A stretch of 64,000 bases of DNA. It comes from Bacteroidales bacterium. Its GTDB lineage: Bacteria > Bacteroidota > Bacteroidia > Bacteroidales > VadinHA17. Made by a program: the position numbers and the translations under genes. The notes below the pieces were generated by a model. The model did no database searches and was not told the DNA's origin. It was given only the letters and a program-made list of their open reading frames with translations. Position 1 is the stretch's first letter; the number at the start of each line of letters is the position of its first letter. Below, piece by piece: positions 3,604-64,000 of this stretch. The DNA lies in assembly GCA_025454815.1 (NCBI GenBank), contig JALONR010000007.1:2445-66444 (forward strand). The letters are read 5' to 3'.

Positions 3604-3646
3604 TTTAAGCTGAGGATTCACACAAGACAAAAAACGAAAACACAAT

Positions 3647-19919: not shown

Positions 19920-19962
19920 GTCTTTAATTTTTTTCGTTTGTACTATAGTTTGATAATGTGTA

Positions 19963-21848: not shown

Positions 21849-23945
21849 CTACCTGAGCCTGCCAGCCTGTTCAGGACCGGGAAGGATCACGGTGAAGCAG
21901 CTTCCTTCGCCCGGAGTGCTTTCAACGGCAATAGTCCCTTTGCTCAGTGTGACAAGTTCATGAACAAGCCTGAGGCCGATTCCCGTTCCCTTTTCCGAAT
22001 CGGTGCCCGGGGTGGATTCAATCTCCTGTCCCGAGAAGAGTCTCTTCTGACGCTCGGGAGAAATGCCCACACCGTTGTCACAAATCCTGATGGTCACCCA
22101 GTCAGATGATTCCTCCTTTTCCCTGACATGGATTGTAACCCTTCCCCCGTGGTTCGTGTACTTGATGGCATTTGACAGCAGGTTCCGTATGACGATGTCC
22201 ACCAGGTCACGGTCAAACCACCCCCTGGATCTTCCCACCTGTGTGAAGTTGATGGAGATATTTTTCCTGTCTGCACCATCTTTCAGGATACTTATGTTTG
22301 TAAGGATGATTTCAGCAAGGTCATTTTCTGCTGGTGCATATCTGATCATGTCTTCCTGCCCCTTGCCCCATACAAGCATGTTTTCAAGGAGGCTTATAAG
22401 CTGCTGCGAATACTGTATGCATGAATCAGCGAGTGATTCCGTTTTGTCGCGGAACTCCTCCTCCTTGAGCATGTAGAGTGTATAGAGTATATTGACCACC
22501 GGGCTGCGGAGGTCATGTGATATGACTGAAAAGACCTTGTTTTTCAGGCTGATGGTTTCAGAAAGCTTTTTATTCTGGAGTGCAATCTGCTCATTCCGGG
22601 CATTAAGTTCCTCGGTTCTCTCCATAAGTTCCCTGGTCCTTTCCTTAACCCTGCTTTCCAGGTTGCGGTTCAGCTCCTCAAGCTGCACCGCCAGCTTCTC
22701 CCGCTCCTTGCCTCGACTGACCCAGTCACGAATAAGCAGTGTTGCCTGTATCAGAACGAATACCAGCATGAGGAAGGAGAGGATATAGAGATGCTGGTTC
22801 TCTTCCATGGCATTGGAGAGAAGAATGTCAGCAACCACCCCGATGATAATTGCCAGGAATGCCACCAGGTAAAGCATATCTGTCCTGCTCCCTTTTATTG
22901 CCCCTCTCAGGCTCATGCCTACCGCATAAAGAATCAACACCATGGCAACGGGCTGGATCACCCACACCAGCCAGGTGAATAGATGAACCGGCAGAAACAC
23001 AACAGAAGCAATACCGGCAACAAACAATACGTCCACCGCAAAAGCAACTCTCCTGAACCACATGGTGGGGTAAATCAGGTATGCCAGCCATGCACCGGAA
23101 GTAATCATGCACCAGAGGATAATATATTCGCCTCTGATGATGAGATGCCATTCCCTTATATCTATTATGGCGGCAAGGTAGGGAGCTGAAAGGAAGGGGC
23201 GAAGGGCAAGACTAAGAACCAGTATTGAAAACATCAGAAGCTTCCTGTCCCTCCTGTCGAGCATGTAAAATATGAAGAAGAAGAGGAATGATGCAAAGAG
23301 CATCCCGGATGCTGCGATGGATATAAACCACTGGTTGGTAAAGTTGGTCTGTATGGAATGGAAGGTGCCTGCCTTCATCGGCATCCAGAAACCTCCCCTC
23401 CGGTGCTCATAATTTGAGACCCTGATCAGCAGTTCCAGGGTGTCACTCTTAGGTACAAAACTGAAGAAGAGCGGTTCGTATGCCGGGATTGATTCAGCCC
23501 TGCTCCTGGCCGGGGTACCGTTCCTGGCCATTGTGACACCGTTTATGCTTATTTCATAGGAAGTGTCAAAGACAGGCATGTCAAAACCCATCCTGTCACG
23601 GTATCCCGATGGGAGCAGTATCAATGTCCTGTAAGTGCCGTAACCGAAACGGGGCAGATGCTGCCCGTCAACAGTGTAATCGCTCCAGTATCCAGGAACT
23701 TTCCCGTAGTGAGCCGGAGGCAGGGTATCGCATATTTCCCCCGGGGTACCATAGATGAATGTGCCGAAGTAGAATTCCCACTCACCGTTCATCCTGACGG
23801 TGAATTCATCTCCCTGCTCCAGATGCCTGAGATCAAGCACACCCTTCTCAACCCTTTCAGAGATGCCGGAGGCATTTCCCGGAAAGAGGGCAATAAGGAG
23901 CAGGATGAGGGATATCCTGCCCGGCACACCCATCCTGTAATACAT
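21849..23945 (-). CDS. sensor histidine kinase, 7TMR-DISM type
   Basis: Signal peptide and extracellular domain (GVLDLRHL...NGEWEFYFG), 7 TM helices, a coiled coil, H-box FSVISHDLRSPV, N box LLSNAIKYT, and G boxes DNGVGI / GTGIGL. Confidence 0.9.
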   Translation of the reverse strand: MYYRMGVPGRISLILLLIALFPGNASGISERVEKGVLDLRHLEQGDEFTVRMNGEWEFYFGTFIYGTPGEICDTLPPAHYGKVPGYWSDYTVDGQHLPRFGYGTYRTLILLPSGYRDRMGFDMPVFDTSYEISINGVTMARNGTPARSRAESIPAYEPLFFSFVPKSDTLELLIRVSNYEHRRGGFWMPMKAGTFHSIQTNFTNQWFISIAASGMLFASFLFFFIFYMLDRRDRKLLMFSILVLSLALRPFLSAPYLAAIIDIREWHLIIRGEYIILWCMITSGAWLAYLIYPTMWFRRVAFAVDVLFVAGIASVVFLPVHLFTWLVWVIQPVAMVLILYAVGMSLRGAIKGSRTDMLYLVAFLAIIIGVVADILLSNAMEENQHLYILSFLMLVFVLIQATLLIRDWVSRGKEREKLAVQLEELNRNLESRVKERTRELMERTEELNARNEQIALQNKKLSETISLKNKVFSVISHDLRSPVVNILYTLYMLKEEEFRDKTESLADSCIQYSQQLISLLENMLVWGKGQEDMIRYAPAENDLAEIILTNISILKDGADRKNISINFTQVGRSRGWFDRDLVDIVIRNLLSNAIKYTNHGGRVTIHVREKEESSDWVTIRICDNGVGISPERQKRLFSGQEIESTPGTDSEKGTGIGLRLVHELVTLSKGTIAVESTPGEGSCFTVILPGPEQAGRLR

Positions 23946-43160: not shown

Positions 43161-43523
43161 ATGAAAATACTTATCTGTGAAGATAATCAGTTGGCTGCCA
43201 GGGCAATGTCTGTTGTCATTGAACGGGAGGGATATGATCCAGTGACTGTTGGTGACGGAAACAGGGCCATTGAAATACTAAAAAAGACTGATTTTGACCT
43301 GGTGATTATTGACATTCACATCCCCTATCACAGCGGCCTGGAGGTGGTAAGGTTCCTTCGCACGGAGCTGAAAAGGCAGACCCCGGTACTGGTAGTGTCG
43401 GCCTTCAGCGATCCTCAGATGCAGCGCCAGGCGGGTGAAATGAAGGTCAGCGGTTATATAACCAAACCTTTTGACCCGGATGATCTTCTCAGGAAAATCA
43501 GGGCCGCACTGGCAGTTGTTTAG
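43161..43523 (+). CDS. stand-alone response-regulator receiver (CheY-like)
   Basis: Acidic pocket ICEDN, phospho-acceptor LVIIDIHIP and conserved Lys in ITKPF. 120 aa with no output domain. Confidence 0.9.
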   Translation: MKILICEDNQLAARAMSVVIEREGYDPVTVGDGNRAIEILKKTDFDLVIIDIHIPYHSGLEVVRFLRTELKRQTPVLVVSAFSDPQMQRQAGEMKVSGYITKPFDPDDLLRKIRAALAVV

Positions 43524-43526
43524 ACG

Positions 43527-44618
43527 ATGGATTATAAGATACCTATAAGATTTCTTTTGCTGACGGTCATGTTTGTCATGACAGCAGGATCGTTATTCTC
43601 ACAGACCATAACTAACCCCGAGGAGGAGTACTCAAGGATCCGTTCGCTGGCGTTTGACGGCAGGTATGAGGAAGCGGAGCCGGCCGCCCTTCAGCTGGTG
43701 AGGGAATACCCTGAGTTCGGCGATGCACGTGTGCTCCTTGGCCGTATCCTGGCCTGGCAGGGGAAGTATGACGAGGGTGCAGCAGTGATTGACACCCTCC
43801 TGGTGTCTGACCCTGACAACAGCGATGCCCTGGAGGCAATTACCGATATCAGGCGATGGTCCCGCGACAGGTCACAGCAGGTCACGGCTCCGACAGATAT
43901 TAGGGCAGGCTATTCGTTTGATGCTTACAATGAGCCTTATGAACGGTTATGGCAGGTCTTCAGCCTGGGAGCAGGACATCGGTTCTCATGGGGTACTGCA
44001 GTTGCATCGGTTAACTACGGACACCTGAATACAGGTCCTCCTTCGGACACCACCGGCAATGATTTCCAGTTTGCCGCCGAAGCATGGCCCGAGCTTACTC
44101 CAAGAAATTATGCCTATGTTGCCTATGCATTCAGCGATGGTCCGTGGTTCCCCCGGCACAGGGCAGCCCTTGAACTGTGGCAGACACTCCCTGCAGGACT
44201 GGCTGTCTCTGCGGGCGTCAACTATTACTATTTTGATAATAGCATCTTCATCGGCACATTCTCCCTGGAGAAATACTTAAGCCGGTACTGGTTCTCGGGA
44301 AGAGCCTATTTCCATTTCAAGGAGATTGGAGTAACAACATCATTCTTCCTTACTGCAAGGAGATACCTCGGCACAACCGATTATCTTCAGCTTACAGTGG
44401 GTACCGGTACAGCTCCCGATGAACCGTATGATATACTGACAGACCTTGAACGACAGAAGGCATCTTCTGCCAGGCTCACCTGGTTCAACCAGATCAATAC
44501 ATGGTGGTCAGTAAGAATCGGTGCAGGCTATTCTTACGAGAAATACAATGCAACCTCATCCCGCAACCGGTTTGAAGGGAATGTCGGAATAATAAGAGGT
44601 ATCGGACGACCTGAATGA
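43527..44618 (+). CDS. TPR plus outer-membrane beta-barrel protein (YaiO/NfrA-like)
   Basis: Signal peptide, TPR-like helices (aa 30-115), then alternating amphipathic strands. The block FQFAAEAWPEL...YAYVAYAFSDGPWFPRHRAALELW resembles the YaiO family as I remember it. Confidence 0.65.
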   Translation: MDYKIPIRFLLLTVMFVMTAGSLFSQTITNPEEEYSRIRSLAFDGRYEEAEPAALQLVREYPEFGDARVLLGRILAWQGKYDEGAAVIDTLLVSDPDNSDALEAITDIRRWSRDRSQQVTAPTDIRAGYSFDAYNEPYERLWQVFSLGAGHRFSWGTAVASVNYGHLNTGPPSDTTGNDFQFAAEAWPELTPRNYAYVAYAFSDGPWFPRHRAALELWQTLPAGLAVSAGVNYYYFDNSIFIGTFSLEKYLSRYWFSGRAYFHFKEIGVTTSFFLTARRYLGTTDYLQLTVGTGTAPDEPYDILTDLERQKASSARLTWFNQINTWWSVRIGAGYSYEKYNATSSRNRFEGNVGIIRGIGRPE

Positions 44619-46354
44619 GAATGACGCTGACCATATTGATGGCTCTGGCTGCAAGCACTGTCACCCTGCAGGCTTCCAATACTACTGAAGAAAGCCGGAC
44701 TGATTCCATGCGCTCCCCGGAAACGGAATCTGCAGTCCCTGTCCTTTCAACATTCCCTTCAGAGCTTACCGTCGGCGGACTCGTTTCACTGGCAAACGGG
44801 CACTATGCCATCCAGATGGGTGCATTCGGCAGACGTGCCAATGCAGAGGCGCTGGGCAGGAAGATTTCTGAATTGTCAGGTCTCCCTGTTGATGTCATAG
44901 AGGATGGTGGCCTGTTCAAGGTATTCATAAACAGTGCACTGAGAGGCGGGGCGCCATGCCTTTACATACCGGTGCAATTCCAGGGTGAAATGGGAAGTAG
45001 CACTCCGCCTGACAATGAGTCCGGGAAGTCAGTTCCTGAGCCTGCAGTAAAGACTGAAAACGTGGTGCCGCCAGTCACATCAACAGTGAATGGGCAGGAT
45101 ACAATCACCCTGGCTTCAGCTGACAGACCAGCTTCCGTACCTGACACTGAAGTCATCCCTGCATCGGATATGCAGGGGGGACAGCAGGTGACTGCTCCGG
45201 ATGAAGAAGAACCTGCAGGAACACAAACCGCAAAACCAGGGATAAGGAACCTCTTTTTTCTCCGGGGAGACAGCCCCTGGCTTAACCGCTATAATTACTT
45301 CGGCAAATCTGTTGCCCTGGTAAATGCATTGATTTTTGCCATACTGGCATCCTTTGCCACTATGCTGATACTTCTCCTCGTCATCCTGCTCAACAGGCGC
45401 AGGATGGAAAGGGAGGCGAAACTGAGACAATATCTTCTTGAGCAGTACCAGTCACTGATAATCGATTACCTGTTCGGTAGCAGCAGTGCAGAACCGTTCA
45501 GGAAAATAGCATCGGATAACTACCGCAGGCAGGTGCTTATAGATCAGATGATTGACGTCAGCGTTAACCTTAAAGGTGATTCACGTGACAAGCTTATGAA
45601 GCTCTACATGGATCTTGAGCTTGACAGTGACTCACTGGCAAGGGCCCGCAGCCGTAGGTGGCACAAAAAAATCAAGGGTTTTCGCGAGCTGGCCTTCATG
45701 GGTATCAGGGAGGGCAATGATGAGATGTACAAGGTCCTCAACTCCAGGAATGAGATACTGAGAATGGAAGCGCAGATTGCACTGGTGAGGCTCAGCGAAA
45801 ATGACCATTTCGATTTTCTGTCACAGCTGAGGAGACCCTTCTCCCTGTGGGAGCAGATAACGCTTCATGACCTTATCATTCAGCATGAGCTGCCTGTTCC
45901 TGATTTTCAGAGATGGCTTTCTTCCGAAAACCCGACGGTGGTGATGTTTGCCCTCAGGATGATCAGGGAGTTCAGGCAGAAGGAGGCCGAGCCCGAGATC
46001 AGGAAAGTGCTGCTTCACAGGGATGCCCGTGTGAGCAGGCTGGCAGTTGAGGTAGCGGGTGACCTTGACTTGCGGACAACCCTGGATACAATGAAGCGCA
46101 TGTACAAGTTCCAGGAGTACAACAACTGCCTGGAAATAGTGAGATCAATGGGCAAAATGCCCGAAACATCCATGCTGGGATTCCTCAAGCTGGTGCTTGA
46201 CAAGGAGGATGATGTGCAGCTTCAGATAGAGGCTGTGAAGGCCATCGAGAACATGGGAGAGGTGGGAGTGCAGGCCCTTGTCAAGGTGATGAAATCAGAG
46301 TACAAGAATTATAACATCATAGTCAGGCACGTGCTTGACCGCAGGATATACTGA
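44615..46354 (+). CDS. SPOR-domain / single-TM / cytoplasmic HEAT-repeat protein
   Basis: Signal peptide, SPOR motif HYAIQMGAFGRRANAEALGRKISELSGLPVDVIEDGGLFKVFI, a Pro/Thr-rich linker, TM helix ALVNALIFAILASFATMLILLLVILL, then ~300 aa of HEAT-like repeats. Confidence 0.75.
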   Translation: MRMTLTILMALAASTVTLQASNTTEESRTDSMRSPETESAVPVLSTFPSELTVGGLVSLANGHYAIQMGAFGRRANAEALGRKISELSGLPVDVIEDGGLFKVFINSALRGGAPCLYIPVQFQGEMGSSTPPDNESGKSVPEPAVKTENVVPPVTSTVNGQDTITLASADRPASVPDTEVIPASDMQGGQQVTAPDEEEPAGTQTAKPGIRNLFFLRGDSPWLNRYNYFGKSVALVNALIFAILASFATMLILLLVILLNRRRMEREAKLRQYLLEQYQSLIIDYLFGSSSAEPFRKIASDNYRRQVLIDQMIDVSVNLKGDSRDKLMKLYMDLELDSDSLARARSRRWHKKIKGFRELAFMGIREGNDEMYKVLNSRNEILRMEAQIALVRLSENDHFDFLSQLRRPFSLWEQITLHDLIIQHELPVPDFQRWLSSENPTVVMFALRMIREFRQKEAEPEIRKVLLHRDARVSRLAVEVAGDLDLRTTLDTMKRMYKFQEYNNCLEIVRSMGKMPETSMLGFLKLVLDKEDDVQLQIEAVKAIENMGEVGVQALVKVMKSEYKNYNIIVRHVLDRRIY

Positions 46355-46359
46355 ATACC

Positions 46360-47778
46360 ATGGGATTTATCTTTGCACATCTGATATTCTACCTGACCCT
46401 CGTACTCTTCGGGTCATACCTGCTGCTCGGCATACACTCAGCACTGGCGCTGAGGAAGTACCTGCGCAAGAACAGTTATGTAAACTACAACTCACTGGTG
46501 CTCTCTCCCCTCAGCCCGAGGATCACCATCATTGCACCTGCATTCAATGAGGGTAAAACCATCATTGACAACGTCAGGACACTGCTCTCGCTCTATTATA
46601 ACAACTTTGAGGTGATAATAGTGAATGACGGCTCAACCGACGGCACATTTGAAAAGATAAGGGATGCCTATGAGCTGGTCAGGGTTAACTACTACTTTGA
46701 CTACCGCATCCCGTGCGAGAGAATCAGGGGAGTTTACAGGTCAAAGGATCCCGCATACAACAGGCTCACGGTAATTGATAAAAACAACGGCGGCAAGGCT
46801 GATTCACTCAATGCCGGAATCAATATCAGCCGCAGCAACCTTATCGTTACAATTGATGCCGATTCGATTATTGAGCCCGATTCAATTCTCAAACTGGTCA
46901 AACCATTCCTTGAGGAGAAGGAAAAGAAGGTCATCGGCACTGGCGGAGTGATCCGCATTGTCAACTCATGTGACATTGAACGAGGCCATATCAGGCAGAT
47001 AAACCTTCCGAAGAAATTCCTGCCCAGACTCCAGGTTCTTGACTACACGCGTGCATTTCTGCTTGGCCGCATGGCATGGAGCCACCTCGACGGACTTATG
47101 CTTATCTCAGGCGCCATGGGTATGTTTGACCGCGAGACGGTCATCAGGGCCGGCGGCTATAATGTCAAGACCGTGGGCGAGGATATGGAACTGGTGCTGA
47201 GAATGCGGCGCTACATGGCTGAACATAAACAAAAGTACGAAGTCACCTATATCCCTGACCCTCTCTGCTGGACAGAGGTGCCTTCTGACCTGAAATCAAT
47301 GCGTAAGCAGCGTACGAGGTGGACAAGGGGCCTGATAGAATCACTCTGGTCACACCGGAAGATGATGCTGAATACCCGTTACGGAAGGCTGGGATTGCTC
47401 GGTTATCCTTACTGGCTCTTATTTGAATGGGCTGCTCCTCTAATAGCTTTCCTTGGTATTGTTTATTCGATCTACCTGGCTGTTTCGGGCGCCCTTAACT
47501 GGCCATTCTTCCTGCTCCTCTTCCTGTTCGTGTACAGCTTTGCGGTGAGCCTGACAACCTGGGCCGTACTGTTTGAGGAGATCACATTCCACAAATACAG
47601 GAGAAAACGGGATGTTCTGAGGCTTATCGGCACAGCGATGCTCGAACCGTTCTTCTATCCGGTTCATACCTACTTCGCCGTAAGGGGTAACCTTGAGTCC
47701 CTGCGTGGTAAGAAGGGATGGGGCAAAGCCGAAAGAAGCGGATTCCAGAATAAAAAGAAGACAGGTACTGCCGTCTGA
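46360..47778 (+). CDS. processive family-2 glycosyltransferase (PgaC/IcaA/NfrB/YaiP-like polysaccharide synthase)
   Basis: Motifs VNDGSTDGT, TIDADS, VGEDMEL and RKQRTRWTRG (QxxRW), with N- and C-terminal TM helices. Confidence 0.88.
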   Translation: MGFIFAHLIFYLTLVLFGSYLLLGIHSALALRKYLRKNSYVNYNSLVLSPLSPRITIIAPAFNEGKTIIDNVRTLLSLYYNNFEVIIVNDGSTDGTFEKIRDAYELVRVNYYFDYRIPCERIRGVYRSKDPAYNRLTVIDKNNGGKADSLNAGINISRSNLIVTIDADSIIEPDSILKLVKPFLEEKEKKVIGTGGVIRIVNSCDIERGHIRQINLPKKFLPRLQVLDYTRAFLLGRMAWSHLDGLMLISGAMGMFDRETVIRAGGYNVKTVGEDMELVLRMRRYMAEHKQKYEVTYIPDPLCWTEVPSDLKSMRKQRTRWTRGLIESLWSHRKMMLNTRYGRLGLLGYPYWLLFEWAAPLIAFLGIVYSIYLAVSGALNWPFFLLLFLFVYSFAVSLTTWAVLFEEITFHKYRRKRDVLRLIGTAMLEPFFYPVHTYFAVRGNLESLRGKKGWGKAERSGFQNKKKTGTAV

Positions 47779-50508: not shown

Positions 50509-50656
50509 TCTGCAAAAAATATTGATGATGAATAGCTGTTTCCCCAAATGTAGCATAAACAGGTGTTAATTTCCCCGGAATTTTTCAACATAGGCGGGGG
50601 ATTTGTCTATATTGGAGGAAATCCATAAATTTATACTCTGCTGCCGGTTCACATAT

Positions 50657-51040
50657 ATGGAAAAAATAGACATCAAGGAGACCTCCAAAACCCCGTCGGT
50701 AAATTTTGATCCTGAGCGCGGATTGTTTGAAATGCGTGGCAAGTCAATACCCGAGAACTCAAACAGCTTCTATAGTCCGCTGCTTCAATATGTGGAAAAG
50801 TATGGCGGCAAGCCTGCCGAAAGAACCATTCTCAATGTGAGGTTCGAGTTTTTCAATACCAGTTCTTCAAACAGGATACACGCGCTTTTCAGACGTTTTG
50901 AAAGGATCTACCTAGCTGACAGTGACGTGCTTATCAGATGGTATTGCGAGAACGGCGACGATAACATGCGTGATGCCGGGAGGGACTTCAAGGCCATCCT
51001 GCAGGTCCCGTTTGAAATAGTCGAAGTTGATGAACTCTGA
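50657..51040 (+). CDS. DUF1987 / SiaC-like regulatory phosphoprotein
   Basis: Contains MEKIDIKETSKTPSVNFDPERGLFEMRGKSIPENS and FEFFNTSSS, which matches my memory of the DUF1987 family. 127 aa from the ATG at 50657. Confidence 0.75.
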   Translation: MEKIDIKETSKTPSVNFDPERGLFEMRGKSIPENSNSFYSPLLQYVEKYGGKPAERTILNVRFEFFNTSSSNRIHALFRRFERIYLADSDVLIRWYCENGDDNMRDAGRDFKAILQVPFEIVEVDEL

Positions 51041-55633: not shown

Positions 55634-56827
55634 TCAATAGGTTGTTAAAGTAAGGATCACAATTTCCGGTGGCATGAAGAACCTTGCCGCCATGCCCATT
55701 GTCCCCAGGCCGGAGGTGACATACAGATGCCTGCCTTTGAACTCGTACAGACCCTTCCACCTTTCGTGAACCAGTGATGAAGGTGACCAGATTCCTCCGG
55801 GCAATCCGATCTGCAGGCCGTGCGTGTGGCCTCCAACAGTCAGATGGGGCAAACGGCCCGATACTGATGAAAGCAGCCATCCCTCAGGATCATGGAGGAG
55901 GAGTACGGTCAGGACAGAGTCCGGGAGGGGTGCGAGCACCTTCTCAAAATCACCGTAATTCATATCCAGGCGGTGACCAAGAGTATTCACTCCTGCGATG
56001 GCAATATCAGCACCCCGGTGATTGATGATCACGGCACTGTCGATAAGGAGAGTGTATCCTGATGCTTCGATCTTACTTTTCAGCCTTTCCCGGCAGAGGA
56101 TTCCGTAGTTCTCATCGTATCCCGGATAATAGGACCCGTCATCATGATTGCCCGGTACGGCAAATGACCCTGCCTCCCCGGCAGCCTTCAGAAGAATAGT
56201 GTCACATCTGCCGAACTCCTGCCAGCCGAAAGTTATAAAGTCACCTGTGTTCAGCACGAGGTCAGCCTTTTCATCGCCTACAGCCTGCATGGCCCTGTCA
56301 AGCCGCTCATAGCTTCCATGCCAGGAAGAGAGGTGAAGGTCGGAGACCAGAGCTATCTTCAGGCCGTTGAGCGCCGGATCAAGTCCCTGCACTTTTACCT
56401 CCTCCCTTACAAAACGGATTTCAAGTCTCTGGCGAAAATACCCGTCTGCAACGGCAAATACCGCGAGCAGGAAGATGATCAGGTTAAGCCGGCTTATCCA
56501 CCTGCTCTTTCTCTTCCTGAAATAAGCCATAAACCGGCCCAGAAGTGTCACTACAATGCATAACCCTGAGGCCGTTACCAGGAGAAAGGCTATTGTCCCC
56601 ATCTGTATCTGCCTGAATGCATTGGCAGGATCGGCAAACTCACCCCGGTAAAGCACTATCCTCAGGAAAAGGATAATGAATAGCACCGATACCGATGCTT
56701 TGACAAGGAGTACCACAAATCTGAGGATTCCTTTCTCCCCCCTGAGCTCCCTGAGCAGCAGAAACCAGAGAAACAGGTCAGCTATCAGCAGTATGAGATA
56801 AAACAACATTCTTTGACTTTGTGACAA
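55634..56827 (-). CDS. membrane-anchored metallophosphoesterase (YkuE-like)
   Basis: N-terminal TM helices followed by SDLHLS, TGDF, GNHD and GGHTHG motifs. Confidence 0.88.
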   Translation of the reverse strand: MSQSQRMLFYLILLIADLFLWFLLLRELRGEKGILRFVVLLVKASVSVLFIILFLRIVLYRGEFADPANAFRQIQMGTIAFLLVTASGLCIVVTLLGRFMAYFRKRKSRWISRLNLIIFLLAVFAVADGYFRQRLEIRFVREEVKVQGLDPALNGLKIALVSDLHLSSWHGSYERLDRAMQAVGDEKADLVLNTGDFITFGWQEFGRCDTILLKAAGEAGSFAVPGNHDDGSYYPGYDENYGILCRERLKSKIEASGYTLLIDSAVIINHRGADIAIAGVNTLGHRLDMNYGDFEKVLAPLPDSVLTVLLLHDPEGWLLSSVSGRLPHLTVGGHTHGLQIGLPGGIWSPSSLVHERWKGLYEFKGRHLYVTSGLGTMGMAARFFMPPEIVILTLTTY

Positions 56828-56885
56828 AAGTAATATTTAAGAGATAATCCGGTACAGAATTCTCTTTTTGATTTACTTTTGTTTA

Positions 56886-57311
56886 ATGGTAACTGTTGAA
56901 CTGGCAATTACAGGAGGCATTGAGCAGCCTCTTTCATATGTTGTTATTGCGGCCCGTTACAGTGACGGATGGCTTTTTGTGAAGCATCGAAGGAGGGGTG
57001 GTTATGAGCTGCCGGCCGGTCATCCCGGAGAGGGAGAGGGCAGCGTTGAGGCTGCAGTGAGGGAACTTACAGAGGAGACAGGTGCACTTGACTTCACACT
57101 GGAGCCGGTCACCTACTATTCAGTTGGTGCGGGCCGGGGAAGACAGTACGGAAGATTGTTCTATGCTGATATCGGGACTCTTGGCGAATTGACTGACACT
57201 GATGAGATTGAAGGTGTGAAAGTATTCCGCCGGTTACCCCGGAATCTCTCCCTGCCTGAGGTGATGTCATTCCTTTTCAGGGTGGCGAAGGAATACGCCA
57301 GGGGACTGTGA
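56886..57311 (+). CDS. NUDIX hydrolase
   Basis: Nudix box GHPGEGEGSVEAAVRELTEETG. The ATG at 56886 is preferred over the TTG at 56868. Confidence 0.85.
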   Translation: MVTVELAITGGIEQPLSYVVIAARYSDGWLFVKHRRRGGYELPAGHPGEGEGSVEAAVRELTEETGALDFTLEPVTYYSVGAGRGRQYGRLFYADIGTLGELTDTDEIEGVKVFRRLPRNLSLPEVMSFLFRVAKEYARGL

Positions 57312-57328: not shown

Positions 57329-58543
57329 TCAGATGTAATCAATGGAGACCTGCTTCAGCCACTTATCCTCGAGGATGCGGGCAATACGCTTTACCACCGT
57401 TCGCCTTATTTCGAGGTCAACCGGCAGTGTCGGGTCCTGGTGGGCCACATTTATCCGGGTACCGACAAGGAAGTTGATCTCGTCGCTTTCCATTATCAGT
57501 TTTACTATTTTGTCTGCTGGCCCCTTGCCCAGCTTGACGCTGTTTTTGTAACCCTTGACAAGTTCATTTACCTTCTGCAGGGTCAGGATACCCTCTGTCA
57601 CCAGGTCAACCCCCTCCATGAAGCTTTCAGGCGGCAGGTCCGGGTCTTCGAATATCAGTTCGTCAACTATCTTTCGGTTCAGTTCCCGGGCTACAATATC
57701 GGCCGTGGTTCCTCCGCACAGTATCACTTTCCCCTTGTATCCGGTCACTTTTTCAGCCAGTTCCCTATCCTTTTCCTCATCATACGGAGGACCGGTGCAA
57801 ATTAGCAGCTTGCGGGGCTCCCTGAAATAGAGTATTGCGCATGAGATGTCGTCTTTTGCCTCGTAGTTGTCATGCTTGTAGGCCATGTTTACAATCTTGG
57901 CCGCCAGGGTGGAGGCTGAGATGGAGGGTTCACTGGCAACCAGTGAGGCGGCATACTGCTGTACGTTGTCACGTTCCCAGCCCAGCGGCCATGCGGCAGA
58001 TCCCATGCCGCTCTGTGCAACGCCGTCGGAGAGCAGGATTATACGGTCTTCCTTGGCAGGGTAGAAGGTGCACTTATGCAGACGCTTCCCGGCATTCCGT
58101 CCCTTGTCAAGCACCACATCCCTCCAGTCGGGTTCAAATGGCTGGCTCCCTCTCAGGATGATACAGCGGGGATTGTCATATTCAAGTATGTTTGCCCGGC
58201 CGTCACTTTCAATATCAACAATTGAAAAGGTGGCATAGCTGATCTTCCTTTCAGAGCAAACCGGGAGGGTGTTCATGATAATCTCCGCAATACGGTCAGG
58301 TTCCTTATGCTCACGGGTGAAGTTCAGCGACATGGTTGAGGTGAGAGTGGCCAGAATATTGGCCTTTACCCCGTGTCCCATGCCATCAGACAACACCGTG
58401 ATGATACGGTTCTCCTCGCGCACGTTCTCTGACAGGAACACATCTCCGCAGATACGCTCTCCGTGGTGGTTGCGCTGCTGGCTGTTGACCTCAATGAAGA
58501 ACTGCCTCTCCATGACTGCGGTGGCGCTACTTTCCGGGTACAT
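57329..58543 (-). CDS. PP2C/SpoIIE-family serine phosphatase with ~170-aa C-terminal domain of unknown function (hfsD-like)
   Basis: Contains GDVFLSE...ITVLSDGMGHGVKANILATL and IILLSDGV. An alternative start MERQFF at 58513 would remove the 17-nt overlap with hydS. Confidence 0.85.
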   Translation of the reverse strand: MYPESSATAVMERQFFIEVNSQQRNHHGERICGDVFLSENVREENRIITVLSDGMGHGVKANILATLTSTMSLNFTREHKEPDRIAEIIMNTLPVCSERKISYATFSIVDIESDGRANILEYDNPRCIILRGSQPFEPDWRDVVLDKGRNAGKRLHKCTFYPAKEDRIILLSDGVAQSGMGSAAWPLGWERDNVQQYAASLVASEPSISASTLAAKIVNMAYKHDNYEAKDDISCAILYFREPRKLLICTGPPYDEEKDRELAEKVTGYKGKVILCGGTTADIVARELNRKIVDELIFEDPDLPPESFMEGVDLVTEGILTLQKVNELVKGYKNSVKLGKGPADKIVKLIMESDEINFLVGTRINVAHQDPTLPVDLEIRRTVVKRIARILEDKWLKQVSIDYI

Positions 58544-60404
58544 TCTTCTTCTGTCGGAATGATTCTACAATTGAGTTGAGCATCTTCTCAGTATCGGATG
58601 CCCCTTCACCCAGCAGGAACCCTATCTTCTGAACCATCTCCAGGTTTTTGTCGATAACGTCGGATACCCTCGTTATAACCTCCTCACGCTGCACTTCAGG
58701 AGAGAAGAGGTCACGTATCACTGCCCCGGCTATCCTGTTCTGCCTGATGGGGAAGATGGATATGTTGAACATCCGGTCTTCAAGCTGAACGTCGCGGCTT
58801 ACGACCGATTCGTTTTCGCGCAGAACGAATGAGAAGATATTGTAGACATTGAACGGAAGCAGGGTCTTGAGGTCGGCACCGCGGAGTCCGGGTATGATCT
58901 CGGCGATCGCTTTTGCATCCTCACCGATTATCTCCAGGAAACGGGCATTTGACTGCAGGATTTTCAACTCATTATCTACAATTACCACCCCGTTGGGCAG
59001 TTTGTTGAGCATGCTGTTCATGGTGTCGGATGCATCCTGTGCCGCATCCTTTTCACGCATGGCCTGCTCCTCCGACTCCTTCAGGGCTTTCTTGGTCTCA
59101 GAGAGCTTTTTGTTTGTCTGCCTGAGGGTCTCAATGTACTCCTGCTTATTGCGGAGGTTGTAGGTGTGGCACATTTCGGGTACAGCCAGACCCTTGGCCA
59201 CGGTTGAAGCAAACTCCCGGCATGAGCCGTAGCCGCAGGCGTTGCAGTTGAGCTCTTCGGCACGGCTATCCTTCCCGATGATCTTCATTACCTCCATGAT
59301 GGCATCCTGTGACGGCTCCGGGATTCGCTGATCATTGGCCCTGAAACTGCGGGTCAGGTCAAGCCTCGACCAACGGTCCATATCCTTTTTCCACTGCTCC
59401 TTGTCGAGCGTCTCAACCCTCTTCTCGGCATACTGCTTGACCAGTGACCTGCGCCTGAACCGCTCATCATGCCTTATCATTCCCGGCCCGAGCATGCATC
59501 CCGGACAGAAGAAGAGGTTGAAATGGTGCCTGATTGTGTCAATATGATGATCGAAATCGCTGATGGCCTCCCTGACATCCTCGGAACCAGATGCTGTTAT
59601 CACCTGACTGGAGACAAGATCACGCTTGATTCCTGCAGCCTGAAGTATGCCGGCAGGGTAGGGGTAAAGCGCTCCCCAGTTGCCGTAGGGAGGATCAAAT
59701 TCAGCCATCTTCACGGTCTTCTCCTGTATCTCATACTCTTCAAAGAGCTGCCTGATCTCAATGAAGGTCAGGACAGCCTCCACGAGGTTCTTTTCCTGGT
59801 AGAGGGTTGCCTCGGCCTTAATGTCAATGCATGGACCTATGAATACGTTTGCCACATCATCCCCGTGGAGATCGCGGGTTACCATGGCCGTGGCCACCAT
59901 GGGAGAGACCAGAGGAGCAAGGTTTGCAACAAGGTGAGGATGGTACTTCTCAACCATCTCTACAATCGAGGGGCAGTTGGATGTAATGTAATACTTGCCG
60001 CTCGACTCCTCGAAGAGCTTCTTGTAGGCATAGGCAACCAGGTCAACACCGAAGGATACCTCATGCACATAGGTGAACCCCAGGCTGCGGATCATACCCA
60101 CAAACTTGCGGTAATCGGTTATGTCATCAAACTCCGAGGCTATGCTGGGTGCTATCAGGGCTGCTGTCCGGCGCCCTGACTTCAGTATCTGCTTGACCTG
60201 CGTGCGTGCATCCCTGAACTCAATTGCCCGGGGTGAGCACGAGAGGAAACAGAGGCCGCACCCGATGCACCTGTCAGCAATGATCACCGGATGTGCCCGC
60301 TCGGGCCTTACCTCCAGCGCATTTACCGGGCATACCCTAACACAGGAATAGGAGTTGCGGCACTTATCCTCGTTAATATATATTACCTGATCTGGTATCT
60401 TCAT
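58527..60404 (-). CDS. hydS: sensory-type [FeFe]-hydrogenase-like protein with PAS domain (HydS / HfsB-like, group C)
   Basis: N-terminal 2x[4Fe-4S] motifs; H-cluster ligand motifs TSNCP, GPCIDIK and FFCPGCMLGPG; an extra Cx2Cx4Cx16C motif (59169-59246); a coiled coil; and a C-terminal PAS-like domain. The start is set at MKIPDQVIYINEDKC. Confidence 0.85.
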   Translation of the reverse strand: MKIPDQVIYINEDKCRNSYSCVRVCPVNALEVRPERAHPVIIADRCIGCGLCFLSCSPRAIEFRDARTQVKQILKSGRRTAALIAPSIASEFDDITDYRKFVGMIRSLGFTYVHEVSFGVDLVAYAYKKLFEESSGKYYITSNCPSIVEMVEKYHPHLVANLAPLVSPMVATAMVTRDLHGDDVANVFIGPCIDIKAEATLYQEKNLVEAVLTFIEIRQLFEEYEIQEKTVKMAEFDPPYGNWGALYPYPAGILQAAGIKRDLVSSQVITASGSEDVREAISDFDHHIDTIRHHFNLFFCPGCMLGPGMIRHDERFRRRSLVKQYAEKRVETLDKEQWKKDMDRWSRLDLTRSFRANDQRIPEPSQDAIMEVMKIIGKDSRAEELNCNACGYGSCREFASTVAKGLAVPEMCHTYNLRNKQEYIETLRQTNKKLSETKKALKESEEQAMREKDAAQDASDTMNSMLNKLPNGVVIVDNELKILQSNARFLEIIGEDAKAIAEIIPGLRGADLKTLLPFNVYNIFSFVLRENESVVSRDVQLEDRMFNISIFPIRQNRIAGAVIRDLFSPEVQREEVITRVSDVIDKNLEMVQKIGFLLGEGASDTEKMLNSIVESFRQKKNVPGK

Positions 60405-60432
60405 AATCAGTAAATTAATTGTTCTGAAAGTC

Positions 60433-60735
60433 CTATACCAGCTCCTTCTCCAGGATCTTTTCAATATCCTGGACTCCTATGCCGGTAAAAGTCCTGCCGT
60501 TGATAATAATATAGGGTCCGTCACTGCAGCGGTTCATGCAGCGCGCTCCCCTGAGCACCACCTTATCATCAAGATGGTTCTTCCTCAGATAATCCCTTAT
60601 GACCTGCACCACTTCCCTGTTACCCCTTGAAAAACAGGAGCTTCCAAGGCAAATCTCAATGTTGTACGATTGTCCCAAAAGCCTGATGTTTAGTTCATAT
60701 TCACTCAAAAGTACAACAATTTCCAACGCATGCAC
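60433..60735 (-). CDS. thioredoxin-like [2Fe-2S] ferredoxin (NuoE/HydC-type, HfsA-like)
   Basis: Cx4C...Cx3C pattern (CLGSSC ... CMNRC). About 80-100 aa; the exact start is uncertain. Confidence 0.75.
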   Translation of the reverse strand: MHALEIVVLLSEYELNIRLLGQSYNIEICLGSSCFSRGNREVVQVIRDYLRKNHLDDKVVLRGARCMNRCSDGPYIIINGRTFTGIGVQDIEKILEKELV

Positions 60736-60762: not shown

Positions 60763-60780
60763 TTGTTAATAAATTAACAA
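60763..60780. promoter_or_regulatory. perfect Rex operator TTGTTAATAAATTAACAA
   Basis: 18-bp dyad identical to the clostridial Rex box consensus TTGTTAANNNNTTAACAA. It sits in the divergent hydS / hydCBA promoter region. Confidence 0.7.
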
Positions 60781-60784
60781 TGTT

Positions 60785-60815
60785 TTTGGAATAACAATAA
60801 AAAACCATAGCTTTG
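60785..60815 (+). promoter_or_regulatory. Bacteroidota promoter (-33 TTTG, -7 TAGCTTTG) of the hydCBA operon
   Basis: TTTG at 60785-60788, a 19-nt spacer, and TAGCTTTG at 60808-60815. The ATG is at 60847. Confidence 0.55.
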
Positions 60816-60846: not shown

Positions 60847-61314
60847 ATGAGTAAGATAGATGATATTCTGAGCCGGTACAGGGAGGGAGGCCATGAAAGC
60901 CTGATACCCATCCTCCAGGATGTCCAGGAGGCTGAAGGGTATCTCTCCGAGAGTGCCATTGTAAGAATCGGCAGTTTTCTGCAGATGTCAACCACCAAGA
61001 TTTACGGGCTGGCAACCTTTTATGACCGGTTCAGGTTCATCCCGGCAGGCAAAATGCACCTGCGCATATGCAACGGAACCACATGCTTCATTAATGGTTC
61101 GGCATCGGTTGTGGCAGCCGTAAGGGATGCCCTCGGAATTGAACCGGGGCAGACCACTCGTGATGGAAGGTTCAGTTATGAGCTTACAGCATGCCAGGGA
61201 GGGTGCAATGAAGGGCCGGTGGTCTGTACCGGTGATACCTACTTCACTCACATTCGTCCCGAGGATGTACCCGAACTTATTTCCAAACTTAAAGCACTGG
61301 CTGATCTAAAATGA
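60847..61314 (+). CDS. hydC: [FeFe]-hydrogenase gamma subunit, NuoE-like [2Fe-2S]
   Basis: CNGTTC...CQGGCNEGP (Cx4C...Cx3C) pattern. 155 aa. Confidence 0.88.
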   Translation: MSKIDDILSRYREGGHESLIPILQDVQEAEGYLSESAIVRIGSFLQMSTTKIYGLATFYDRFRFIPAGKMHLRICNGTTCFINGSASVVAAVRDALGIEPGQTTRDGRFSYELTACQGGCNEGPVVCTGDTYFTHIRPEDVPELISKLKALADLK

Positions 61315-63260
61315 AAAAGAGTACAGACAACGGCCTGAAGGATTTCCTGGTCAGGGAGGTACTGTTGCACGGCTCTGATACCTTGCCGGCTGAGACAGCC
61401 CGTCGGCTGGCCGAAGTAAGGCGTGACAAGCCATCGGCACCAGTCATCTATGTGGCTTCCGGATCAGCAGCAATAATTGCAGGCGCCAACGCTACCGCAG
61501 CTGCAGCTGAACTTTACCTGGATGAGATGGGAATAATGGGAGAGGTTGTCAGGACCGGTTGTCACGGTCCTGCTGCATTTGAGCCCCTGGTTTGTGTTCA
61601 TCTGCCCGGAAAGAACAAGTTAATCTTCAGGAATATTACGGAAGATAAGATTGAACCGTTACTCAACGGGGTGTTCCATAATGATATGCCGGAGGAGGAT
61701 CTCGTGGCTCAGTCTGGCAGTTACGGATTTGAGGCATGGCATGATATACCTTTTTTGGAGGAGGTGCCTTTCTTCAGGCTGCAGAAGAGGGTGGTTCTCG
61801 GAAACTGCGGTTGTTATGACCCTGAGAGCATTGAGGAGTACATTTCACGTAGTGGTTACAGGGCCTTTCTGAAGACAATACGGAATTACACCCACGAGGA
61901 GGTGTGTGACATAGTTGAGCGCAGCGGGCTTCGAGGGCGAAGCGGCGGCGGCTTCAACACCGGGCTTAAATGGAAGTATGCCCTCAACTCGGCGTCTGAC
62001 AACAGGTACCTTATTTGCAATGCCAAGGAGAGTGACCCCGGGTCATACGCTGACAGGTCAGTGATGGAAGGTGACCCGCACAGGCTGATAGAGGGCATTT
62101 GCATTGCCTCATACGCCATAGGGGCCTCCACGGCGGTCATTTACCTGAAAACCGGGTCACCCCACCCCCTGGCACGGTTGCGCAAGGCACTCGCCGCCGC
62201 CGCTGAGTACGGCATTACAGGACACAATATACTCTCAAGCGGATTCAACCTGGAGATTATAGTCCGGGAAGAAGCAGGTGCATTCGTCTGCGGAGAGGAG
62301 ACAGCGCTGATAGCCTCCCTGGAGGGCAAGCGCGGTATGCCCGAGCTCAAACCGCCATACCCAACCACAAGCGGCCTTTACGGAAAACCCACCGTGATAA
62401 ACAACGTGGAGACACTTATGAATGTCCCCCTGATAATGTCACACGGACCTGAGTGGTTCAGGTCGATGGGCACGGAAGGGAGCAAGGGGACCAAACTCTT
62501 TTCCCTCGGAGGAAAAGGACGCTTCACCGGCCTTATCGAGGTGGAGATGGGAACAACCTTCAGAACCATTACAGAGGGGATAGCTGACGGCATCAGGGAC
62601 GGCAAGGCATTCAAGACCCTACAGATAGGAGGCCCGTCAGGCACCTTTATAACAGAAAAGAACCTCGACCTGCCTGTCGATTATGATGTCCTCAGGGCCA
62701 ACGGCATAGCCATGGGATCAGGAGGACTCATCATCATTGACGAGACCACCTGCCTGGTCGATTTCGTGAGGTATTACATGGAGTTCATTCACAGGGAAAG
62801 CTGCGGTAAATGCATCCCCTGCCGTGAAGGAACAGGCCGTATGCAGGAGATCCTTGAGAACGTAGTACGCAAGCCTCACAGCGAAGACTCCAATGCAACC
62901 CTTGAGAGGTTCAAGGGTGTAATGCAGCTTGAGACCATTGCTTCGGTGATGAAGGATACTTCGCTCTGCGGTCTCGGCCAGACAGCACCCAATCCCTTCA
63001 TCAGCGCCCTTGCCAATTACCGCGAAGAGTTTGAGGAGCATATCTTTGACAGGCGCTGCCGTGCCAATGTATGCCGCGGTCTCAGAACATTCAGCATTGA
63101 TGTTGAAAAGTGCACAGGTTGCACCGTGTGTGCCGCAAAATGCCCGGTTAATGCCATATACGGAACAAGGCTGCAGCCTTTCTTCATTGTTGAGGACAAA
63201 TGCATAGGGTGCGGTGTATGTTATGATGTTTGCAAGTTCAGTGCCGTTACAGTTAAATAA
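61311..63260 (+). CDS. hydB: [FeFe]-hydrogenase beta subunit, NuoF-like NADH/FMN-binding flavoprotein with C-terminal 2x[4Fe-4S]
   Basis: Contains GLRGRSGGGFNTGLKW, ESCGKCIPCREG and CTGCTVCAAKCP...CIGCGVCYDVC. The start overlaps hydC as ATGA. Confidence 0.9.
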   Translation: MKKSTDNGLKDFLVREVLLHGSDTLPAETARRLAEVRRDKPSAPVIYVASGSAAIIAGANATAAAAELYLDEMGIMGEVVRTGCHGPAAFEPLVCVHLPGKNKLIFRNITEDKIEPLLNGVFHNDMPEEDLVAQSGSYGFEAWHDIPFLEEVPFFRLQKRVVLGNCGCYDPESIEEYISRSGYRAFLKTIRNYTHEEVCDIVERSGLRGRSGGGFNTGLKWKYALNSASDNRYLICNAKESDPGSYADRSVMEGDPHRLIEGICIASYAIGASTAVIYLKTGSPHPLARLRKALAAAAEYGITGHNILSSGFNLEIIVREEAGAFVCGEETALIASLEGKRGMPELKPPYPTTSGLYGKPTVINNVETLMNVPLIMSHGPEWFRSMGTEGSKGTKLFSLGGKGRFTGLIEVEMGTTFRTITEGIADGIRDGKAFKTLQIGGPSGTFITEKNLDLPVDYDVLRANGIAMGSGGLIIIDETTCLVDFVRYYMEFIHRESCGKCIPCREGTGRMQEILENVVRKPHSEDSNATLERFKGVMQLETIASVMKDTSLCGLGQTAPNPFISALANYREEFEEHIFDRRCRANVCRGLRTFSIDVEKCTGCTVCAAKCPVNAIYGTRLQPFFIVEDKCIGCGVCYDVCKFSAVTVK

Positions 63261-63263
63261 GCC

Positions 63264-64000
63264 ATGCAGTTCACCATCGAAGTCAATAACAAGAGCATCA
63301 GGGCTGAAAAGGGAGAGACCATCCTCTCGGCCCTCAACCGCAACGGCATTATCATTCCCACACTCTGCCGTATGGCGGAGTTCACCCCTACCGGGGCATG
63401 CCGTATGTGTGTGGTGGAGGTTGAGGGGCGTGACAGGCTTGTCACCGCCTGCTCTGCACCCGTCGAAGAGTGGATGAAGATAAAAACCCATTCACCTCGT
63501 GTCATCAGGGCCAGGAAGACGATCGTTGAACTCCTTCTTTCGAATCATCCCGATGACTGTCTCTACTGTGACCGCAATCTTGACTGCGAGTTGCAACGCC
63601 TCTCGGATGAGATGCAGGTGAGGGAACGGCGCATCCGAGGAAGCAAGATCAAGCCCCGCCGTGACCAGTCGAGCCCGGCAATTGTCCGCGAGCTTTCAAA
63701 GTGTATCCTCTGCGGACGCTGCCTGAGGATATGCGAGGAGGTGGTCACCGCAACGTCAATAGACTTTATCGGCAGGGGTCGCTATACCCACGTTGGCCCG
63801 GCCATGGACCGCGACTTCAACTTCTCGAGCTGTATCCACTGCGGTCAGTGCGTACTGGTTTGCCCCACCGGAGCCCTGCATGAGAAGCATTATCTTGCAG
63901 AGGTGCAGGAGCAGCTCAGCCGCCATGATGTGACACGCGTTATCCAGTACTCCCCGCTGGTGCCATATGCCCTGGCCGAGGAACTGGGAATAAAATACAA
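63264..64000 (+). CDS. hydA: [FeFe]-hydrogenase catalytic subunit, N-terminal part (3'-truncated by window edge)
   Basis: My own translation from the ATG at 63264 gives MQFTIEVNNKSIRAEKGETILSALNRNGIIIPTLCRMAEFTPTGACRMCVVEVEG... This shows a 2Fe-2S domain, HPDDCLYCDRNLDCELQ, and CILCGRCLRICE / CIHCGQCVLVCP. The frame is open to the window end. Confidence 0.88.
   Translation, partial: MQFTIEVNNKSIRAEKGETILSALNRNGIIIPTLCRMAEFTPTGACRMCVVEVEGRDRLVTACSAPVEEWMKIKTHSPRVIRARKTIVELLLSNHPDDCLYCDRNLDCELQRLSDEMQVRERRIRGSKIKPRRDQSSPAIVRELSKCILCGRCLRICEEVVTATSIDFIGRGRYTHVGPAMDRDFNFSSCIHCGQCVLVCPTGALHEKHYLAEVQEQLSRHDVTRVIQYSPLVPYALAEELGIKY

Follow-up and report, generated by a model that had tools for sequence, protein, structure and literature searches.

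Phosphatase-linked [FeFe] hydrogenases and the layout of the locus

Subgroup C3 of the [FeFe] hydrogenases is defined in HydDB as "phosphatase-linked (putative)" (PMC5037454), and an H-cluster subunit, a PAS domain, and a Ser/Thr phosphatase subunit are common to the class (PMC6776011). The sensory class carries Gly at the position of CpI M353 and a residue other than Cys at the position of CpI C299 (PMC10055695). The partner, substrate, and output of the HydS class are unknown (PMC13104023). HydS proteins are abundant in guts, digesters, and sediments. In Perlabentimonas gracilis, Tenuifilum thalassicum, and Williamwhitmania taraxaci, two group C3 "bfuT" genes flank bfuABC, and nearly all C3 genes of Hydrogenedentota adjoin A3 genes (PMC11406978). 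In the hfs operon of Thermoanaerobacterium, hfsC encodes a serine phosphatase and hfsD a ferredoxin-linked catalytic hydrogenase, and hfsA is unassignable and partly like a hydrogenase large subunit (PMC11837493). We analysed a gene for a HydS-type [FeFe]-hydrogenase homologue, together with its neighbours, in a 64,000-nt stretch of contig JALONR010000007.1 from an uncultured Bacteroidales lineage (the whole stretch is called the window below). On balance, we think it probable that these genes form a putative H2-sensing, phosphatase-linked (group C3-type) [FeFe]-hydrogenase module in a regulatory locus for a bifurcating-type HydABC.

The module consists of three tightly packed genes in the same orientation on the minus strand. 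They encode a small thioredoxin-like [2Fe-2S] protein (60433-60678, with a maximal open reading frame (ORF) reaching GTG 60735; Pfam PF01257), HydS itself, a putative H2 sensor of 625 aa (58527-60404; assigned from Pfam, NCBIfam, motifs, and alignment to CpI and TmHydA), and a PPM (SpoIIE/RsbU/RsbX-type) Ser/Thr phosphatase with a 404-aa ORF (57329-58543; assigned from Pfam SpoIIE, an AlphaFold2 (AF2) model, and Foldseek). The module faces hydC-hydB-hydA, on the plus strand, across a 111-bp gap. The hydS ORF extends from 58527 to 60464, and counted from the ATG at 60404 its product has 625 aa, as its homologues do. Only 28 nt separate the end of the small gene from this ATG. The end of hydS shares 17 nt with the longest phosphatase ORF, or is followed by a 13-nt gap if the phosphatase starts at Met11. 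Because most homologues have 394 aa, Met11 (58513) is probably the true start, which would give a 394-aa phosphatase.

The arrangement of the sensor-module genes is far from chance. In a set of 163 related loci, where the denominators vary with the gene scored, the PP2C gene lies directly downstream of hydS in 139 of 142 loci, the small-protein gene directly upstream of hydS in 145 of 149, and hydC is divergent from the sensor genes in 132 of 136. The synteny of the module was found in 80/80 genome loci, and it extends to Bacteroidota in which HydS identity falls to 51-54%. The genome and metagenome scans for HydS loci gave solely relatives that are at least 69% identical, and the distant contexts (L161, L162, and L163) come from three exact-sequence look-ups. 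The closest relatives are uncultured Bacteroidales metagenome-assembled genomes labelled Rikenella or Rikenellaceae at NCBI, and the sources of the relatives are fermentation, activated-sludge, and other metagenomes. Judged from its genes, the locus appears to be a real, well-conserved example of a class that is already known and functionally unproven. The original prediction had held the module to be experimentally unstudied in Bacteroidota; this stands, but the arrangement had already been recorded from genomes (PMC11406978).

HydS as a putative sensory hydrogenase

The Pfam profile of HydS comprises Fe_hyd_lg_C (PF02906, 1.5e-38), two Fer4 motifs, and PF04060 at an extra-cluster motif. We scanned 1.84 billion representatives for HydS relatives and obtained 820 50%-identity clusters at E ≤ 1e-30, and an alignment of 135 representatives out of these clusters gave the residue statistics of the wider family. 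The Bacteroidota subfamily set has 243 members, made up of 120 close homologues and 123 others. This subfamily of about 620 aa appears to be confined to Bacteroidota, because all source names given are Bacteroidales, Tenuifilaceae, or Bacteroidota.

The H-domain (aa 80-307; 59484-60167, minus strand) was delimited from Pfam, motifs, and the alignment to CpI and TmHydA. It keeps the four Cys ligands of the H-cluster, C144, C192, C300, and C303 (CpI C300, C355, C499, and C503), which are conserved in 133-134 of the 135 representatives. The ligands lie in the motifs TSNCP (aa 141-145), GPCIDIK (from aa 190), and CPGC (aa 300-303), and a third motif of the type CxGC is usual in the classes of about 620 aa and of 660-700 aa. 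When HydS is aligned by HMMER with T. maritima HydA and CpI, Asn143 (codon AAC, 59976-59978) falls at CpI C299 and Gly190 at CpI M353. The same alignment puts Ile195/Lys196 at CpI K358/K359. Phe298/Phe299 lie around M497. Among the 135 representatives, position 143 carries Ala (74), Pro (14), Thr (12), Ser (10), Cys (8), and Asn (7), position 190 is Gly in 114, and the family figures at both positions agree with those published for sensory enzymes (PMC10055695). Within the Bacteroidota subfamily, Asn143 is invariant in the 120 close homologues and the commonest residue (54) in the other 123 members. A full-length relative that is 48% identical to HydS (P0242) has lost the ligands, with SNDP for SNCP, GPDI for GPCI, and no CxGC; it is a degenerate pseudo-hydrogenase version of the sensor.

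Each of the catalytic group A/B hallmarks (relay Cys, Met353, Lys358, and Met497) is replaced in HydS, by Asn143, Gly190, Ile195, and Phe298/299, respectively. The NCBIfam scores are far below both cut-offs, at 87.7 vs 405.95 for group A and 163.4 vs 450 for group B1. The nearest HydS relatives all have the sensory architecture, and a SpoIIE-family Ser/Thr phosphatase gene overlaps or abuts the hydS stop. We file HydS as putatively group C, C3-type, from architecture and gene context rather than from the HydDB classifier, because HydDB defines C3 by its putative phosphatase linkage and PMC6776011 describes the same class features.

These results bear out most of what had been proposed for the protein. 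The four H-cluster Cys, with all quoted motifs and coordinates, the Asn codon at the proton-relay position, and the Cx2Cx4Cx16C motif proved exact, and at the CpI Cys299, Met353, and Met497 equivalents, which had been proposed for checking, HydS has Asn143, Gly190, and Phe298/299. The motifs and the published residue pattern also fit the suggested architecture of putative sensory group C hydrogenases, and the phosphatase-linked subgroup that had been mentioned exists as C3 in HydDB (PMC5037454).

HydS shares with the group C3/BfuT proteins the four-Cys H-domain, the non-Cys relay position, an extra C-terminal 4-Cys motif, a putative PAS-like domain, and the adjacent Ser/Thr phosphatase and group A3-type hydABC genes. 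Unlike group C3 at large, this lineage has an Asn relay (7/135), Ser18, and no Lys at the K358 position. Compared without a direct alignment to its sequence, TmHydS, the biochemically characterised group C enzyme, has the same order of N-terminal [4Fe-4S] clusters, H-domain, C-terminal cluster, and PAS domain (putative in HydS), as well as Gly at the M353 position and a non-Cys relay residue (Ala131). HydS differs from TmHydS in having Asn rather than Ala at the relay position, CxGC rather than CxGGC as its L3 motif (CxGGC is seen in the representative class of about 575 aa), and a linker that exceeds that of TmHydS by about 45 aa.

At the N-terminus, a ferredoxin domain of the 2x[4Fe-4S] type (aa 8-61; 60222-60383, minus strand) was defined from the Fer4 matches and the list of Cys residues. 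It has seven Cys instead of eight, as the first motif carries Ser18 where its second Cys would be. This position is Cys in 130 of the 135 representatives and Ser in 120/120 close homologues. The C-terminal extra-cluster motif (aa 387-412; 59169-59246, minus strand) is an exact Cx2Cx4Cx16C, coincides with the PF04060 match (6.8e-08), and has all four Cys in 134 of the 135 representatives. The charged linker that follows (aa 413-461; 59022-59168, minus strand), where the original prediction had put a coiled coil, was delimited by composition. The 50 residues at aa 413-462 include no Pro or Gly, and from this composition alone the linker presumably forms one long helix.

A PAS-like domain (aa 462-565; 58710-59021, minus strand) was placed from PAS_10, PAS_8, and PAS_9 matches and a profile match to Aer2. 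With the whole protein, PAS_8 (17.9 bits) and PAS_10 (17.2 bits) each score under their Pfam cut-offs, and the isolated C-terminus reaches 23.0 bits for PAS_10 against a cut-off of 22.1. Among ten subfamily members, PAS_8 matches in 8/10 and PAS_9 in 6/10, and the subfamily profile matches the Aer2 PAS domain (3vol and 4hi4) in the PDB at E ~1e-3. The signals are weak though consistent. The most conserved C-terminal stretch follows the PAS domain (aa 580-618; 58551-58667, minus strand), with invariant alignment columns and the consensus ...NLxMVQxIGFLLGEGAxxTExxLNS.... It is helix-turn-helix-like, matches no family, and is a candidate docking surface, the docking being inferred only.

The phosphatase and the small [2Fe-2S] protein

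The phosphatase matches Pfam SpoIIE (PF07228, 2.8e-13) over aa 44-238. An AF2 model, built on a 107-sequence alignment at 76-97% identity, has a mean predicted local distance difference test score of 79.9 and a predicted template modelling score of 0.77. The best Foldseek matches of the model are SpoIIE, Rv1364c RsbU, RsbX, and RssB, with SpoIIE, RsbU, and RsbX at E ≤ 3e-11, and the SiaA PP2C domain comes lower (rank 36, E 7.7e-07). The motifs GD, DGMGHG, SDG, and DD are invariant in 41 sequences, including relatives that are 62-64% identical. Among the 107 sequences, the Asp of GD is conserved in at least 90% and the remaining motifs are invariant. The model and motifs place the enzyme, which had been predicted to be a PP2C phosphatase, in the bacterial partner-switching (SpoIIE/RsbU/RsbX) branch of the PPM phosphatases with its metal-binding motifs intact. 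Known members of this branch remove phosphate from small phospho-Ser/Thr switch proteins.

The fold and metal-binding motifs are those of the SpoIIE/RsbU/RsbX/SiaA phosphatases (Foldseek E 3.7e-12 to 8.6e-07). Unlike them, the enzyme has no N-terminal regulatory domain and has instead, at its C-terminus, an alpha/beta domain of roughly 160 aa (residues 242-404 in the 404-aa ORF; 57332-57820, minus strand), defined by the AF2 secondary structure. In model residues 232-394 the order of elements is b-a-b-a-b-a-a-b-a-b, and the domain is 61-82% identical in distant Bacteroidota. It matches no Pfam family, and Foldseek with the whole phosphatase model returns PP2C matches only. The sole lead is a weak profile match to a SIS-domain phosphoheptose isomerase (E=0.029).

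The phosphatase also differs from the SpoIIE/RsbU/RsbX/SiaA enzymes in its surroundings, since no gene for an STAS/SiaC substrate or for an RsbW/SiaB-type or other Ser kinase adjoins it, either in the window or in any of the 163 related loci. A 3-kb insertion behind the phosphatase gene of locus L057 was considered as a place for a kinase or a substrate. As read by eye from the ORF translations, without a family search, it appears to hold only a transposase-like ORF, lipoproteins, and OmpA-like and thioredoxin-like proteins. The sole partner-switch-type phospho-substrate among the scanned window proteins is encoded by a SiaC-family gene (50603-51040, plus strand; PF09345, 1.9e-34), which has no SiaA- or SiaB-like neighbour.

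The small protein matches PF01257 (2Fe-2S_thioredx) at 2.1e-10, over profile positions 65-143 only, and its CxxxxC...CxxxC pattern aligns with HydC and with orthologues of 81-93 aa. By this alignment, the protein corresponds to the C-terminal, cluster-binding half of NuoE/HydC and is a truncated NuoE-like protein. The PF01257 and SpoIIE matches confirm that the genes flanking hydS encode a thioredoxin-like 2Fe-2S protein and a PP2C phosphatase, but their mapping onto hfsA and hfsD in the original prediction was wrong, since the phosphatase is the counterpart of hfsC (PMC11837493). For the same reason, the "hfsC-type kinase" reported as missing does not exist to be missed, hfsC being a serine phosphatase (PMC11837493). 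The order of a HydS-PAS protein (HfsB) followed by a serine phosphatase (HfsC) is shared with the Thermoanaerobacterium hfs operon. Unlike the small gene here, hfsA does not encode a thioredoxin-like ferredoxin (PMC11837493), and no second sensor fused to a histidine kinase has been reported for the hfs operon. In the hfs operon and the Ruminococcus albus hydS cluster, the partner is the ferredoxin-only HfsD/HydA2 of the same operon, whereas here it is the divergent HydABC.

The facing hyd operon and its promoters

The facing operon begins with hydC (60847-61314, plus strand), which encodes a NuoE-like protein of 155 aa (PF01257, 6e-43). In the PDB it is closest to NfnC, NiFe-HydC, and T. kivui HydC, and it matches the C subunits of solved bifurcating enzymes over the full length. 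The next gene, hydB (61311-63260, plus strand), encodes a NuoF-like protein of 649 aa with a C-terminal 2x[4Fe-4S] domain, as assigned from Pfam, NCBIfam, and PDB matches, and HydB matches the B subunits of bifurcating enzymes (7t2r, 9n5u, 7q4v, 7p5h, and 8a6t) over the full length. The first 245 codons of hydA follow (63264-64000, plus strand; NF040763, 1.2e-81 on the fragment), encoding the N-terminal 2Fe-2S/4Fe-4S domain of HydA, and the window ends within this gene. These full-length matches support the earlier assignment of the operon to the bifurcating type, and we take it to encode an electron-bifurcating-type HydABC of the Bfu family.

The full-length HydA orthologue, of 571 aa, was found in a relative whose HydS is 97% identical (locus L001; 5425-7140, minus strand). 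The HydA of the relatives has no proton-relay Cys: its L1 motif is [ST]ACPAW, with Ala at CpI C299, and its L2 motif is [TS]PC.AMK[FY]E, with Thr or Ser at M353, Met at K358, and the next Lys kept. These motif forms prevail among the 102 loci with complete HydA, and the positions were confirmed against T. kivui HydA1 (8a6t). Variation at this relay (P1) position has been described in other phyla (PMC11406978).

In all 102 loci with complete hydA, the gene after hydA encodes a second HydS-like protein, which is fused to HisKA-HATPase. In L001 this second sensor has 654 aa (3448-5412, minus strand) and corresponds to a position just past the right end of the window. The two paralogous sensors differ in their residues. 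The PAS/phosphatase type has an Asn relay and no Lys at the K358 position, and the histidine-kinase type has an Asp relay in 96/96 loci, retains Lys-Lys, and bears the same Cx2Cx4Cx16C motif. Genes for a stand-alone receiver of 130 aa, a receiver-histidine kinase, Rex, and RibF follow the second sensor, and rex closes the hyd operon in the relatives (NF003995, 4.1e-56). Among the proteins downstream of hydA, none except Rex has a DNA-binding output domain. The earlier observation that no kinase is encoded near the module holds for adjacent Ser/Thr kinases but is partly an effect of the window edge, as the 102 loci carry kinases after hydA, all of them histidine kinases and not Ser/Thr kinases.

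A motif scan found a Rex-operator-like perfect 18-bp palindrome, TTGTTAATAAATTAACAA, between the divergent promoters (60763-60780). It is unique in the 64 kb even with 2 mismatches allowed (0.13 expected), and a Rex-box match lies upstream of the sensor operon in 133 of 143 loci. A near-identical Rex site, TTGTTAATAAATTAACTA, has been predicted in front of hfsABCD in T. saccharolyticum (PMC5886521). The promoter region thus holds a predicted operator of the TTGTTAAnnnnTTAACAA type, and the hyd operon of the relatives contains a rex gene. Rex would repress one or both of the divergent promoters at low NADH, and a Rex-type operator at this place would make NADH/NAD+ a second input. From the operator and from the second kinase-fused sensor, receivers, and Rex of the relatives, the locus seems to bring together two sensors for H2 and one for NADH.

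Bacteroides promoters have a -7 box with the consensus TAnnTTTG. Such a box, TAGCTTTG, precedes hydC (60808-60815, plus strand), 32 nt upstream of its ATG, and another consensus match, TACTTTTG, could serve the sensor operon (60706-60713, minus strand). The whole window holds 25 boxes of this type on both strands. Because the box of the sensor operon sits within the 100-aa ORF that starts at GTG 60735, TTG 60678 is the probable start of the small protein, which would then have 81 aa and resemble its orthologues of 81-82 aa in length. The Rex box, the dual-sensor context, the C-terminal domain of the phosphatase, the missing Lys at the K358 position, and the relay-less HydA are, to a moderate degree, new details. 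In all, about 15 kb holds a sensor, a phosphatase, a redox partner, a target operon, a Rex operator, and, in the relatives, a second, kinase-type sensor, and cultured Bacteroidota with the two-sensor layout (Tenuifilum, Perlabentimonas, and Williamwhitmania; PMC11406978) are usable for experiments.

Signalling, alternative readings, and neighbouring genes

In the reading that we favour, HydS would bind H2, or turn it over slowly, at its H-cluster. The small [2Fe-2S] protein would be its redox partner, so that the sensor could read the H2/H+ couple relative to the electron pool of the cell. The signal would travel along the region of the C-terminal cluster and the PAS domain and so reach the phosphatase, probably within a stable complex, and the phosphatase would alter the phosphorylation of a substrate protein and thereby adjust the synthesis or the activity of HydABC. 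The HoxBC-HoxJ-HoxA system, with a group 2b [NiFe] regulatory hydrogenase, offers a functional analogy only, as a crippled hydrogenase that serves as H2 sensor over hydrogenase genes. Its metal site and protein family are unrelated, and the output of HoxBC is a histidine kinase, whereas here it would be a phosphatase; the histidine-kinase-fused paralogue lies downstream of hydA in the relatives.

Several observations weigh against an H2-sensing, phosphatase-coupled HydS. No experiment in any organism is reported to show H2-dependent signalling by a HydS-phosphatase pair, and no gene for a substrate, a Ser/Thr kinase, an STAS protein, or a DNA-binding output protein adjoins the module in the 163 loci. 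In TamHydS, a group D enzyme, 1 atm H2 does not reduce the C-terminal cluster (PMC13104023), which argues against a simple redox relay via that cluster. One N-terminal cluster of HydS is without one Cys ligand (Ser18), and the PAS assignment by hidden Markov models is marginal. In catalytic enzymes, CpI K358 makes a hydrogen bond to a cyanide ligand. Lys is found at this position in 108 of the 135 representatives of the wider family vs 0 of the 243 Bacteroidota subfamily members, and the [2Fe] site of HydS may therefore be altered or absent.

HydS constantly adjoins hydCBA, and a HydS-type gene has been named as the T subunit gene of the bfu cluster (PMC11406978). HydS could accordingly be an accessory, low-activity hydrogenase subunit ("BfuT") that joins or feeds HydABC, with the small protein, homologous to the cluster-binding half of HydC, as an electron wire and the phosphatase as a co-located regulator. 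TmHydS, whose activity can still be measured although its relay residue is Ala (PMC10055695), lends this some support. On the other hand, hydS is divergent from hydCBA, has its own -7 box, and is tightly packed with the phosphatase gene in the 139 of 142 loci noted above. In addition, the PAS-like and linker regions have no electron-transfer role, and the non-Cys relay position and the Gly at M353 are like those of the sensory class. Taken together, we regard an accessory-subunit role as unlikely.

The missing Lys at the K358 position, the Ser in place of a ferredoxin-domain Cys, the loss of all H-cluster Cys ligands in P0242, and the TamHydS cluster that does not respond to H2 (PMC13104023) would all suit a HydS without a functional [2Fe] subcluster. 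Such a protein would sense the cellular redox state, through ferredoxin or the small 2Fe-2S protein, by its [4Fe-4S] clusters and PAS domain, and would not sense H2. This is improbable in our view. The four H-cluster Cys, Pro-Ser at aa 86-87 (CpI P231/S232), SP at aa 167-168, and Lys196 are invariant or nearly so in the subfamily (Lys196 across all 243 members), which is hard to explain without a bound cofactor. Moreover, in the neighbouring and presumably catalytic HydA, the K358 position is likewise not Lys, being Met, and the next Lys is kept, so the next Lys may substitute.

An extension of the favoured H2-sensing reading would make the locus a three-input controller of a non-canonical HydABC, with the two paralogous H2 sensors and Rex as inputs. 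The sensors would be tuned to different H2 thresholds or directions and would converge via the orphan receivers, and the C-terminal domain of the phosphatase, possibly SIS-like and metabolite-binding, would be the point of convergence or a fourth input. We offer this extension as a speculation that is doubtful at present.

It is very unlikely that the SiaC-family phosphoprotein is the target of the phosphatase in a partner switch of the SiaABC kind with an output other than hydrogenase expression: the gene is in the window, 6.3 kb off, the structural matches include the SiaA PP2C domain, and another SiaC-family gene lies less than 10 kb away in L163, but unrelated genes intervene between SiaC and the module, no SiaB-like kinase is nearby, the L163 copy is 33% identical and hence a paralogue, and SiaC synteny is limited to the close clade, with none within 10 kb in the clade of about 72% HydS identity, L161, or L162. 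On this limited synteny, SiaC was rejected as a conserved linked substrate of the phosphatase.

The phosphatase gene is directly followed by genes for a calcineurin-like phosphoesterase with a membrane anchor (55634-56827, minus strand) and a NUDIX hydrolase (56868-57311, plus strand). Their relatives occur near the module in most genome loci and are 33-51% identical in the clade of about 72% HydS identity, and the two genes have no evident functional link to the module. Elsewhere in the window, a 7TMR-DISM sensor histidine kinase (21849-23945, minus strand; 7TMR-DISM_7TM, HisKA, and HATPase_c) adjoins a Crp/Fnr-type regulator (21120-21791), and an ORF at 18273-19997 looks, by eye from its translation, like a hybrid-cluster protein. 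Four adjacent genes at 43161-47778 (plus strand) encode a stand-alone response regulator, a TPR and YaiO beta-barrel protein, a SPOR/HEAT-repeat protein, and a family-2 glycosyltransferase, and they look like an exopolysaccharide synthesis/export cluster. Two ORFs of 1147 and 1431 aa at 160-7942 (plus strand) are rpoB/rpoC-like, again by eye from the translations, and are possible taxonomic markers.

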